In this document: positions 3,718 through 59,990 of the stretch, in pieces | Layout: each line of letters starts with the position of its first letter | Position numbering within the stretch: the first letter of the stretch is position 1 | Sequence record: MK373784.1 | DNA from: Escherichia phage vB_EcoM_MM02 | DNA: 64,000 nt | Strand: one strand, 5' to 3' | The notes under the pieces: generated by a model | Seen by the model: the letters and a program-made list of their open reading frames with translations, nothing else | Told to the model about the DNA's origin: nothing | Database searches by the model: none | Translations under genes and position numbers: made by a program

Positions 3718-4403
3718 TACCAGCCTTCCATAGGGAATTCCAGATAAACTTGAGCATTGACACGAATTTCATTGGTAATCTTTTTAACTCGGTCTGTATT
3801 ACGAGATACACGTCCGAACCAACGCCATCCGTTACTAATTGCACGAGAACCAGTGTGCCATGTTTGCCAATCAAACTGAAGAAGAGTACGATCTGGAGCT
3901 TCCCATTTCTCTAGTTCACCTTTTTCAATTTTTTCGAGGACTTCTTTGTGCCACTGGCGATAGATAAGTTCGCCATCAGGAATCTGACTGAACTCTGCAG
4001 TTCCTGTTGCAAAATGAGTAGGACACACGTCAGCGTTAACAAGACCAAGAATATGTTCAGAATGGTAACGAGGGTTGTCATAGTCAGGTTGTCCTGCAGT
4101 AATAAAGTGTTGACCAACTGGAATATCAGGGCGAGGAACATCGTCATGGTGGTATCCAGGAATAGCAGGATACCAACCAGGCATCAGCATATGAACCCGA
4201 GAATCAAATACAACATGTTGATTAGTCCAATCAATTGGGAGATTGGCAATAAAGCTACGAGTGATTGAGCCACCATTATCCCAAGCAAAACCCAAATCAC
4301 AATTAAAGAACATTGGTTCATTTTTGATTCGGTCATTTTGTACGTTATGTGCAAAACTACCAACTGCACGAGCTTGACTATTAAAAGTTTTAGAACTATT
4401 CAT
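3717..4403 (-). CDS. hypothetical protein
   Basis: 228 aa ORF with SD GAGGAAAA; His/Asp-rich stretch HHDDVPRPD; function not assigned. Confidence 0.5.
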   Translation of the reverse strand: MNSSKTFNSQARAVGSFAHNVQNDRIKNEPMFFNCDLGFAWDNGGSITRSFIANLPIDWTNQHVVFDSRVHMLMPGWYPAIPGYHHDDVPRPDIPVGQHFITAGQPDYDNPRYHSEHILGLVNADVCPTHFATGTAEFSQIPDGELIYRQWHKEVLEKIEKGELEKWEAPDRTLLQFDWQTWHTGSRAISNGWRWFGRVSRNTDRVKKITNEIRVNAQVYLEFPMEGW

Positions 4404-10809: not shown

Positions 10810-11116
10810 CTTGCGGCAACCTTGTCGGGGTTCCACCTGCTAAGGCAAGTGTTTGTACGAAACGCCGGGATTCGAACCCGGTTATTAAGCAGTTGACGCT
10901 ACTCAATATTTTTAAAAGGCCATATCTCGACCATATCCGAACGTTCCGTCAAAAACGCTACTCGGCTTACGGCAAAGATATTTCCTCGAATCGATAATTC
11001 GGTGCGCCGTTTCTGCTGTGATGTAAGGGGATATTAACAAATCGTAAAGATTTATTAAGACCAGTCCTTACTCAGGGAACATCAGTCCGACGACTTGCCG
11101 GTAGCGACCCGGCTTC
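10810..11116 (-). ncRNA. non-coding region with tRNA-like T-arm; possible small stable RNA or degenerate tRNA
   Basis: Minus strand contains CCGGGTTCGAATCCCGG (canonical T-arm) but I could not fold a complete cloverleaf by hand; no plausible ORF. Confidence 0.3.
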
Positions 11117-11479: not shown

Positions 11480-11556
<77 letters not shown>

Positions 11557-11559
11557 GAT

Positions 11560-11634
11560 TGGTGACCCTGGCTGGTTTCGATCCAGCTACCTATCAGTTA
11601 TGAGCTGACAGCTCTCCCATTGAGCTACAGGGCC
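11560..11634 (-). tRNA. tRNA with CAT anticodon (Met or Ile-lysidine type)
   Basis: Hand-folded 75-nt cloverleaf: acceptor GGCCCTG/CAGGGTC, anticodon loop CTCATAA, T-arm GCTGG-ATCGAAA-CCAGC, encoded CCA. Confidence 0.65.
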
Positions 11635-47271: not shown

Positions 47272-47302
47272 CAAAAAAAAAGGGACCTTACGGTCCCTTT
47301 TT
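47272..47302. terminator. bidirectional intrinsic terminator
   Basis: AAAAAAAAA-GGGACC-TTAC-GGTCCC-TTTTT between convergent genes 24 and rnlB. Confidence 0.75.
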
Positions 47303-47304
47303 CG

Positions 47305-55398: not shown

Positions 55399-56567
55399 AA
55401 GTATTCCAACGTCCAGGATATCCTAACTTAAGCGTTAAATTATACCAAGATTATTCGGCTTGGCAAGAAAATAGATACGTTGAACTCGCGGCAACAATAA
55501 CAACTTTAACCATGCGAGATTCGTTATATGGAAGAAATGAAGGGATTCTTCAATTTTATGACACTAAAAACATCCACACTAAAATGGATGGTAGACAGAT
55601 AGTCCAAATCTCTGTTTCAAATTCAAACACACCTCTCCAAGTTAGAACTCGAATTTACGGATGCAGACATTATTCTGTGTCTGTGGACTCAAAAGGTGAC
55701 AATATTATTGCAATTGAGCTTGGAACAATACATTCTATAGAGAACCTTAAATTTGGGCGTCCATTCTTCCCGGATGCAGGCGAATCTATACGTGAAATGT
55801 TAGGTGTCATATACAAAGACCGTGCGTTAATTACTCCGCCAATAAACACTATTAATGCTTATGTTCCTGATATCCCTTGGACAAGCACATTTGATGATTA
55901 TTTGGCATATGTCAGAGAATTAGGACTTGCTACAGCGAGTGATAAGTTCGTATTCGTATGGCAAGATATTTTAGGCGTAAACATGATTGACTACGATACT
56001 CTTATTGGTCAGGAAGGCATTAAGATGATTGTAGGTGAGCCAAATACTGTAGGTCAGTATATTCAAGAGCTTGAGTATCCATTAGTATGGGATTTTACCT
56101 GGATGACTAAAGCCAACCAATTTACAAGAGACCCTATTAAAAACGCCACAATATTCGCCCATTCATTTTTAGATACATCTATTCCGGTTATTGTTACAGG
56201 TGATGGTGATAATGCTATTCTTGTGTCAAGATCCGGCGGATATTCCGAAATGACCTATCGTAATGGATTTGAAGAAGCAAGTCGTCTTCAGACAATGGCT
56301 CAATATGACGGATATACTAAATGCACTACTACAGGCAATTTTAACATAACGCCTGCTACTAAAATTATATTTGTTGACCAAAAGAACCAATTCAAATCCG
56401 AATTTTACGTAGATGAAGTTATTCATGAGTTATCAAATAACAACTCACAAACTCATCTGTACATGTTTACCAACTCAATGGTGTTAGAACCTGTTAACCC
56501 AGTTAAGGTTAAAAATGAACTTAAATCTGATTCTACCTCTAAAGAAAATAATTCTACCACAATCTAA
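55395..56567 (+). CDS. 27: baseplate hub protein gp27
   Basis: 390 aa (T4 gp27 is 391); synteny. Confidence 0.9.
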
Positions 56568-57048
56568 TAAAAAGGTAATGATTCCCAAATTAGGGCTCAA
56601 ACATTATAATCTTTTAAAGGACGTTAAAGGCCCTGATGAAAACATGAAAATCTTAGCTGATTCTATTTGTAAAAATATGAGTCCCGCAGATTTTGATTTT
56701 GCATGTCTACACATATTGGAATTTAATAACAAACTTAAGTCTGAAGTTGAAAAAGACGGATTCACTTATAAACTAGATGACGTCTATGTATGCCAACGAA
56801 CAGAATTCCAATTCCAAGGTAATACTTTTTATTTTAGACCCCCAGGCAAATTTGAACAATTCGCTACAATCAGTGAAATGCTATCAAATTGCTTAATAAA
56901 AGTTAATGACGAAGAGAAAGAAATTTCTTTCCTTGAGATGCCTGCTTTTGTAATCAAATGGGCAGAAGACCTTTCGACAACTATTGCTATTCCAGGCCCT
57001 AATGGTCCTATTAAGGGTGTAGCAGAAATTATTGGATTGCTTGAATGA
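56515..57048 (+). CDS. 28: baseplate distal hub protein gp28
   Basis: 177 aa, same as T4 gp28; overlaps gene 27 end. Confidence 0.85.
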
Positions 57049-58872
57049 AACCTGAAGAAATGAAATCCATGCGTAGAAATAAGGTCATTGCCGATAATAA
57101 ACCACAAAAAGTAGCTGCAACAGCAGCTACCGATTCATTAGAAGCATTGAATGACATTTCATCAAAACTAGACGATGTCCAAGCCGCGTCTGAACTCACA
57201 TCACAAAGTGTAGAAGATAAAGGCAATGGAATCATTGAATCAATTGGAGACTTAAAGAATTCGACAGATAATACAAGGCAATGGAATCATTGAATCAATT
57301 GGAGACTTAAAGAATTCGACAGATAATACTGCTGAAGGCACAGAGCTTATCGCAGAAGTTATTGAAAAACAAACTGAAGTCACTAAAAGTATAAACGAAG
57401 TTTCTAGTGCAATAAGCTCTAAGTTAGACCGATTAGCTACATTATTAGAGCAAAAATTACAAACATCTACCGCTATTCAAAATACAGGAGGCACCTCTCT
57501 TGAAGTAATTGAGAACGCAATACCTGTTAAAGTGGTTGAGAATGAAACTTCTGATGAGTTGTTTAAAGCATTCCCTACACCTGAAAAGATTGATAATAAG
57601 CCAGACGAAGATTTCTTCCCAGCACCGGTTCAAGAAAGTGCTAATTCTACTTCCGATTCTAAAGGCGGAATTAGCTTTAAATTGAGCGATAAAATTGCAA
57701 TGCTCACCAAAACAGTTCAAACCGGGTTTAATAAATCAATATCAATTTCAGACAGAATTGCTGGAATGCTTTTCAAATACACTATAACGGCTGCTATTGA
57801 AGCAGCAAAAATGGCCGCACTTATTCTTGGTATTGTTATCGGTATTGATTTATTGATAGTCCATTTCAAATATTGGACAGACAAGTTCACTTCTGCCTGG
57901 GATTTATTTGATGAAAACTTTACTAAATTCTCTGACGAAGCTAAAGAGTGGGGTAAATTCTTAAGTGATATATTCACTTCTATTGACTCTATAAAACAAT
58001 TGTGGGAAGCTGGAGACTGGGGTGGTTTAACCGTTGCTATTGTCAAAGGTGTAGGAACAGCATTAATGAATTTAGGTGAACTAATTCAATTAGGAATGGC
58101 TAAACTCTCCGCGTCTATATTGCGTGCTATAGGTTTTGGTGATACCGCTGACGAAATAGAAGGACGTGCTTTGGAAGGATTCCAAGAAACTACTGGGAAC
58201 AAATTAAAGAAAGAAGACCAAGAGAAAGTCGCTAAATATCAAATGAAGCGTGACGATGGGGAATTAGGAACCGTTTCTAAAGGCCTTGATATGTTACAAC
58301 GTGGCAAAACATTCGTTACTAACTGGGTTCGTGGTAATGACAATAAAGAAGAGTTTAGTACAAGCGATGAGCGTGCTGCGGAATCAGCAAAATTAAAAGA
58401 GTTACCTGAAGAGGAGCGTAAAGAGGCGTATATAAAAGCTAATGAAACTCGTGCGGCACTGGTTAGATTTGAGGATTATATCGATAAAATCGATATGACT
58501 AATCCAGAAAATGCTAAAAACGTCGAGAAGTCTTATGCTGATTTAAGTAAACTTATTAAAGACCCTGAACTTAATAAAACTCCTGTTGTTAAAAAGGAAT
58601 TAGATGCTAGATTTGAAAAGCTAAATAATAAAATGGCTGAAGCCAAAAAGGCTCAGACCACAGTTAAGCCTGAATCTTCGTCTAAATCTCCGGAAGCAAA
58701 ACAAGTTCAGTCAATAGAGAAAGGACGTGCTTCTGAATCTAAACAACAGCAACCGGTAGCGGCGATTAGTAACACAAATAATGTCGTCAAAAAGAATACC
58801 GTAGTCCAGAATATGACCCCTGTAACAAGTACAACGGCTCCTGGAATTTTCCATGCCACCGGTGTTAATTAA
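57045..58872 (+). pseudogene. 29: gene 29 (tail tape-measure / baseplate hub) interrupted by a frameshifting 55-bp tandem duplication
   Basis: Frame from 57045 stops at 57291-57293 inside the second repeat copy; the rest of the gene continues in the +1 frame to 58872; removing one copy gives a single 590-codon ORF, the T4 gp29 length. Confidence 0.8.
57221..57330 (+). repeat. perfect 55-bp direct tandem duplication (2 copies)
   Basis: AAGGCAATGGAATCATTGAATCAATTGGAGACTTAAAGAATTCGACAGATAATAC at 57221-57275 and again at 57276-57330. Confidence 0.95.
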
Positions 58873-58880
58873 GGATTATT

Positions 58881-59990
58881 ATGATTAGTGTAAAAGAAAT
58901 AGTAGTAGATGCAAAGGATTTAAATAAAGCAATCCCAGTCACAGAAAGTGCTGGGCAAAGCACTAAAACCGAAACAACTACTAAAACTTATGTTGCTCAA
59001 TTTCCTACAGGAAGAGCAGCCGGAAATGACTCCACAGGAGACTTCCAGGTAACAGACCTTTATAAGAATGGATTATTATTTACCGCGTACAATATGTCTG
59101 CACGCGATTCAGGATCCCTCAGGAATTTACGTCCGGCATACGCCGGGACTTCATCTAACGGTATCATATCAGATTTAACTGATAATGTGAAAGATGCAGT
59201 GACTAAATTCTCTAATGGGTTGCTTCCTGCTGGAGCTAATAAATCAACCATAAATAAAACTCCTGTTGCTAATATACTTTTGCCACGTTCCAAATCTGAC
59301 GTTGATACAACTTCACATCGTTTTAATGATATCGGTGATAGTCTTATTACTAAAGGTGGAGGTACTGCTACGGGTGTTTTAAGTAACATTGCTTCTACTG
59401 CAGTCTTTGGTGCATTAGATTCTATTACCCAAGGGCTTATGGCCGATAATAACGAACAGATTTATACGACTTCTCGTAGTATGTATGGCGGTGCTGAGAA
59501 CCGTACTAAAGTCTTTACATGGGATTTAACTCCGCGTTCAACTGAAGACCTTATGGCTATTATAAACATTTACCAGTATTTTAACTATTTCTCATATGGT
59601 GAGACCGGTAAATCACAGTACGCCCAAGAGATTAAAAGTTATTTAGACGAATGGTACCGTTCAACGTTTATTGAGCCTATGACGCCAGATGATGCAGTAA
59701 AAAATAAGACATTGTTTGAAAAGATTACTGCGTCATTAACAAATGTATTAGTTGTAAGCAACCCTACAATTTGGATGGTTAAAAACTTTGGTTATACGTC
59801 TAAATTTGATGGATTAACTGACGTATTTGGTCCATGTCAAATTCAAAGCGTACGTTTTGATAAAACTCCAAATGGACAATTTAATGGTCTCGCTGTTGCT
59901 CCTAACTTACCATCAACATTTACGTTAGAGATAACAATGCGAGAAATTATTACATTAAACCGTTCTTCACTTTATGCGGGGACTTTCTAA
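58881..59990 (+). CDS. 48: baseplate-tail tube junction protein gp48
   Basis: 369 aa (T4 gp48 is 364); synteny. Confidence 0.85.
   Translation: MISVKEIVVDAKDLNKAIPVTESAGQSTKTETTTKTYVAQFPTGRAAGNDSTGDFQVTDLYKNGLLFTAYNMSARDSGSLRNLRPAYAGTSSNGIISDLTDNVKDAVTKFSNGLLPAGANKSTINKTPVANILLPRSKSDVDTTSHRFNDIGDSLITKGGGTATGVLSNIASTAVFGALDSITQGLMADNNEQIYTTSRSMYGGAENRTKVFTWDLTPRSTEDLMAIINIYQYFNYFSYGETGKSQYAQEIKSYLDEWYRSTFIEPMTPDDAVKNKTLFEKITASLTNVLVVSNPTIWMVKNFGYTSKFDGLTDVFGPCQIQSVRFDKTPNGQFNGLAVAPNLPSTFTLEITMREIITLNRSSLYAGTF

Follow-up and report, generated by a model that had tools for sequence, protein, structure and literature searches.

Gene 29 of Escherichia phage vB_EcoM_MM02, as it stands in sequence record MK373784.1, is interrupted by a perfect 55-bp tandem duplication which, with a probability of about 97%, is an assembly artefact derived from the end overlap of a contig built by SPAdes at k = 55, and not a product of phage biology. 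Assembly error had been one of several options listed in an earlier note on this DNA, and it is the one supported here, by the match of the repeat length to k = 55, by the presence of duplications in sibling genomes, and by the single copy in relatives. The DNA analysed, referred to below as the window, is a stretch of 64,000 nucleotides of the MM02 record and represents a genome segment of a Mosigvirus (RB69-like, Tevenvirinae). Positions are those of the window unless a record is named. Copy number was judged at the sequence level, from assembled records and contigs.

The sole array called by Tandem Repeats Finder was located at 57220-57329, with a period of 55, 2.0 copies, 100% matches and no indels. 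A base-by-base check of its borders placed copy 1 of the unit (AAGGCAATGG...GATAATAC) at 57220-57274 on the plus strand, and copy 2, of the same sequence, at 57275-57329 on the same strand; the identical run is exactly 55 bases long, and the copies are directly adjacent. The earlier note had likewise described two identical adjacent copies of 55 bp, but its register (57221-57275 and 57276-57330) was one base too far to the right, because position 57275 is an A and position 57330 is a T. No other perfect tandem duplication with a period of 20-300 was found in the 64-kb window. A perfect tandem repeat of 55 bp cannot have arisen by chance. A microhomology-mediated duplication was ruled out as well, as the 55-bp unit and its flanks (left ...AGATA, right TGCTG...) have zero bases in common at the borders.

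A duplication of this length shifts the reading frame of any gene that it hits, because 55 = 3 × 18 + 1. The sequence as given does not contain a single intact gene 29 open reading frame (ORF). Instead, it contains an 82-aa ORF (57045-57293, plus strand), which corresponds to positions 2-74 of phrog_1283, and the remainder of the gene in the +1 frame (57256-58872, plus strand), which corresponds to positions 146-584 of phrog_1283. As had been proposed from the sequence before, the N-terminal frame terminates with ...DNTRQWNH at the TGA at 57291-57293, inside copy 2, and the gene continues in the +1 frame, which is open from 57256, up to the stop codon at 58870-58872. The first canonical start codon in the +1 frame is GTG at 57532, and no ATG, GTG or TTG precedes it. 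The region from this GTG to 58872 is deposited as MM02_00205 (QBQ79253.1, 446 aa), and the 82-aa ORF is deposited as MM02_00204 (QBQ79252.1), a hypothetical protein; an exact-sequence look-up confirmed that the two products are exactly these proteins. Re-initiation of translation downstream was considered and rejected, since with the first start codon of the downstream frame so far inside the gene it would cost about 144 N-terminal residues.

The deletion of one copy in silico restored a single ORF of 590 aa, in agreement with the 590 codons that had been anticipated for the single-copy version. The product of the repaired ORF matched Pfam family PF25671 (T4_Tape_measure) over 2-590 of 590, with a score of 752 bits for positions 3-590, and this end-to-end match confirmed the earlier assignment of the gene as gene 29. 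Moreover, the alignment of the repaired product to gp29 of phage AV115 was gapless with one mismatch, and those to other 590-aa relatives had no gaps either. In matching phage records this region is annotated as 'baseplate hub subunit, tail length determinator'. The assembly of the T4 baseplate hub and tail depends on gene 29, which also determines tail length. Both neighbours of the split gene, the upstream homologue of gene 28 (baseplate hub distal subunit, 56515-57048, plus strand) and the downstream homologue of gene 48 (baseplate tail tube cap, 58881-59990, plus strand), are intact. Owing to a different choice of start codon, the gene 28 homologue is 177 aa long here and in many records but is called as 156 aa in other genomes, RB69 and APCEc01 among them; in its long form it shares 53 nt with the end of gene 27.

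About 150 phage records matched the gene 29 region at 95-99% identity. An alignment to gene 29 of related phages, which had been suggested as a check, revealed a single copy: the listed related records, of which 150 cover the region, aligned in two pieces that together span 55 bp less than the window, and none of the 150 covering records in the phage record search gave a one-piece 100% match. Compared with mar005P1, the 25 kb at 39001-64000 differ by no indel other than that of 55 bp. The window and APCEc01 are collinear, with an identity of 98.6%, and 81 of the 84 CDSs annotated in the compared part of APCEc01 are intact and full-length in the window, while 2 fall in a replaced variable stretch. 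Thus, among the 82 CDSs common to both, gene 29 alone is split. Independent sequences gave the same picture. Contigs from Logan, ENA and NCBI that encode an identical gp48 all carried a 590-aa gene 29 and lacked the junction (10/10). A 36-mer representing the junction had zero matches in viral_contigs, metagenome_contigs and genome_contigs, the gene 29 region had no match whatever in E. coli genomes or plasmids, and the only match in a search with a 100-base pattern was a single-copy IMG/VR contig, 98% identical.

The same comparisons revealed a few other differences. The stretch 564-916 of the window could not be aligned to APCEc01, which has there about 780 bp (record positions 121264-122043), including two small hypothetical genes, APCEc01_180 and APCEc01_181, without a counterpart in the window; this looks like the replacement of a gene cassette typical of the hypervariable regions of T4-like phages. 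Small clustered indels relative to APCEc01 were seen at 4217-4222, 4343-4345, 11614-11617 and 47272-47303; some of them compensate each other in pairs, some are intergenic, and none breaks a shared CDS. A metagenome contig of 8,335 bp from ENA has a 446-aa gene call that begins from the same internal GTG (MVENETSD...) and differs by 3 mismatches from the MM02 fragment, while the other ENA members of the cluster of this fragment start at later internal Met codons. These calls likely represent gene 29 cut by contig ends or by local assembly errors, and the 8,335-bp contig may have an independent upstream frame break of its own.

When a de Bruijn assembler meets a circular sequence, it writes out a linear contig in which the last k bases are the same as the first k bases. 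If this end overlap is not trimmed when the circle is re-opened, a perfect k-bp tandem duplication is formed where the old ends join. The MM02 record is 169,201 bp long. According to Korf et al. 2019, Illumina data were assembled with SPAdes 3.12.0 '(55kmer)', and the contigs of circularly permuted T4-like phages were re-arranged afterwards to match published relatives; Table S4 of the same paper lists MM02 under accession MK373784 with a coding density of 95.0% and a coverage of 272.9x. The length of the repeat, 55 bp, is equal to the k stated for SPAdes. The text and supplementary tables of Korf et al. 2019 do not assign individual phages to Illumina or PacBio sequencing, and we infer from the 55-bp signature that MM02 itself passed through Illumina and SPAdes.

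The most plausible course of events would be as follows. The circularly permuted MM02 genome would have been assembled from Illumina reads by SPAdes with k = 55 into one 'circular' contig that ended with a repeat of its first 55 bases, and the ends of this contig would have landed by chance inside gene 29. The contig would then have been re-ordered by the depositors to start at rIIA, like the published relatives, with the old ends joined untrimmed, and the outcome would be a perfect tandem duplication of 55 bp at about 121 kb in the MM02 record. On this reading, copy 1 would be genuine gene 29 sequence, with which the original SPAdes contig ended on its 3' side, and copy 2 would be the 5' end of that contig, namely the untrimmed k = 55 overlap. 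The old contig ends would meet at 57274/57275, the choice of the redundant copy being arbitrary. In the actual phage, the unit should be present once, and the tape-measure protein should be intact at 590 aa. As coding density is 95%, a junction of this kind would nearly always fall inside a gene.

The window would look no different if its cutting had itself brought together the two ends of a linear record that still carried the k-mer overlap, in which case the deposit would be free of an internal duplication. However, the two gene 29 products, MM02_00204 and MM02_00205, are held in GenBank as consecutive CDSs, and therefore the split lies inside the deposited record. In addition, sibling records open with rIIA, as RB69 does, and have gene 29 near 120 kb, and their 55-bp duplications are internal. 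An origin of the duplication in the cutting of the window is thus extremely improbable.

If the duplication in MM02 came from the assembler, other T4-like genomes of the study should bear 55-bp duplications of their own at unrelated sites. We tested this prediction with two siblings, scanning vB_EcoM_KAW3E185 (MK373782) outside 99901-123999 and vB_EcoM_G53 (MK327943) outside 149701-167834. In the KAW3E185 record, a perfect tandem duplication of 55 bp occupies 10974-11028 and 11029-11083 (unit CAATACGGCC...GCATCTAG). It is situated at the 3' end of a small gene that lies just before the gene for a dda-like helicase, and it alters the C-terminus of KAW3E185_00015. Among the best 8-12 matches to this site, KAW3E185 was the only one-piece match, and the others, including G53 and G2469, spanned 55 bp less. 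A perfect tandem duplication of 55 bp is likewise present in the G53 record, at 133379-133433 and 133434-133488, and here a DAHP-synthase-like gene is interrupted, which was deposited as misc_feature G53_00221 of 1048 nt, that is 993 + 55. The removal of one copy regained an ORF of 330 aa. Again, among the best 8-12 matches to the site, only G53 itself matched in one piece, and the remaining listed records spanned 55 bp less. The annotation of G53_00221 as a misc_feature of 993 + 55 nt indicates that the depositors of G53 saw the frameshift; they missed its cause.

Thus, all three Mosigvirus genomes of the study that were examined (the siblings in the parts scanned) bear exactly one private perfect duplication of 55 bp, each at a different site. 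Independent mutations are not expected to measure exactly 55 bp in every genome. No 55-bp tandem duplication was present in a 64.6-kb stretch of APCEc01, which comes from a different study. Within the same study, no duplication was found in small siphoviruses (MM01 and WFI in whole, PTXU06 at 1-42321 of 45,904 bp). This means that the 55-bp error is not universal in the study; otherwise the absence is uninformative, as these genomes may have been sequenced with PacBio or trimmed.

Tandem duplications are known to be produced in T4-type phages, and the deposited sequence itself holds the duplication, so it has to be considered whether the sequenced lysate contained a real one, either as a lethal or defective allele of gene 29 or as a mixture of duplication and revertant genomes of the kind seen in T4. 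Several observations speak against both possibilities, which had been raised in the earlier note next to that of an assembly error. MM02 (DSM 29475) is supplied by a culture collection and is a viable lytic phage. It was propagated and titred on E. coli BW25113 in one laboratory, and in another it served as a model lytic phage that lysed MG1655 cultures at an MOI of 1e-3 and 1e-5. Because gene 29 is required in T4 tail assembly, a majority frameshift allele is incompatible with the growth of MM02: with two copies the protein is truncated, yet the phage was grown in independent laboratories, and a phage that was sequenced at about 273x coverage and used elsewhere as a lytic model could not have had a frameshifted gene 29 as its consensus. 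A defective genome was therefore not borne out. The idea of heteroplasmy did not hold either, since the length of the duplication is exactly the k of the assembler, and since KAW3E185 and G53, which went through the same pipeline, have private duplications of identical length at unrelated sites. Moreover, the duplication is absent from the relatives listed, about 150 of which cover the region, and from the ten independent contigs. We regard a genuine duplication in the lysate as very unlikely.

A viable phage with exactly this sequence would need recoding to make full-length gp29, and recoding was considered for this reason. Two routes can be drawn for a real duplication. In one of them, ribosomes would shift by +1 within the 35 nt that the two frames share (57256-57290), which would yield a protein with an insertion of 18 aa; in the other, they would leave a codon of copy 1 and land on its counterpart in copy 2, a hop of 55 nt of the type known from T4 gene 60. 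The geometry allows for both, as the frames do overlap at 57256-57290 and the sequence offers, for each codon of copy 1, an identical one to land on 55 nt further downstream, and there is a rare AGG codon at 57276-57278. However, the signals that would be expected to accompany such events were absent. The predicted RNA fold at the site was no better than that of shuffled sequence (z = -0.33). Inspection revealed no stop codon after any possible take-off codon in copy 1 and no slippery +1 motif in 57256-57290; in particular, ACA-AGG-C does not qualify as such a motif, and for CAU-UGA there is no in-frame CAY landing site. Nothing is conserved at the site, because the insert is missing from all listed relatives, and the same 55-bp lesion occurs in non-structural genes of KAW3E185 and G53. 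With both signals and conservation absent, the suggestion that the site might need recoding was not borne out, and a real duplication read through by frameshifting or hopping is the least probable of the explanations considered here. That the two-copy allele is real in the stock and that a full-length or 18-aa-longer gp29 is made by unprogrammed or novel recoding (+1 at ACA-AGG-C or a 55-nt hop) is scarcely more credible. Adjacent genes for tRNA-Arg(tct) and tRNA-Met(cat) are present in the window at 11480-11634 on the minus strand, as in other Mosigvirus genomes; a phage-encoded reader of AGA and AGG codons bears on the idea of frameshifting at a hungry AGG codon.

The sole value of the untrimmed overlap lies in data quality, that is in the correction of database records. 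MK373784 is probably 55 bp too long, and the true unique length of MM02 DNA is likely 169,146 bp. At present, MM02 gp29 is stored as two 'hypothetical proteins', each of which also has a UniProt entry of its own (A0A482N180 and A0A482N100). The same kind of error is present in at least two sibling records, MK373782 and MK327943, and in MK327943 it turns the DAHP-synthase-like gene into an apparent pseudogene; the remaining T4-like genomes of the study may be affected too. Such records can mislead pseudogene calls, core-gene counts, the design of guides and primers, and searches for recoding. A correction notice is warranted for MK373784, MK373782 and MK327943. When a perfect 55-bp tandem duplication is encountered in a circularly permuted phage genome, the signature of an assembler should be the first reading, and by the same logic this rule would extend to other k sizes of SPAdes, e.g., 77 or 127.

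Three known systems resemble the MM02 case in part. T4 gp29 (PF25671) belongs to the same gene family, and the repaired MM02 product spans its 590-position profile. Engineered duplications within gene 29, on which Abuladze and colleagues reportedly worked in 1994, are said to lengthen the tail. In contrast to these duplications, which are in frame, that of MM02 has a length of 3n + 1 and destroys the frame, and it resides in a database record and apparently not in the phage. The bypass of a 50-nt coding gap in T4 gene 60 is similar in that an insert of about 50 nt of non-coding sequence lies in an essential gene of a T4-type phage between identical flanking codons, but the signals of gene 60, namely a stop codon at the take-off site, a take-off stem-loop and conservation, are missing in MM02. 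The third likeness is to the k-mer overlap of circular SPAdes contigs: the length of the repeat is equal to k, the copies are identical and adjacent, and the genome is circularly permuted, was assembled as a single contig and was re-opened. Terminal repeats and frameshift errors are among the common problems listed for phage genome submissions. An overlap of likewise 55 bp was noticed in the T4-like phage 132 and trimmed there (PMC8483715). Unlike that of phage 132, the overlap in MM02 was left untrimmed, and so it lies inside an essential structural gene, which came to be annotated as two hypothetical proteins.
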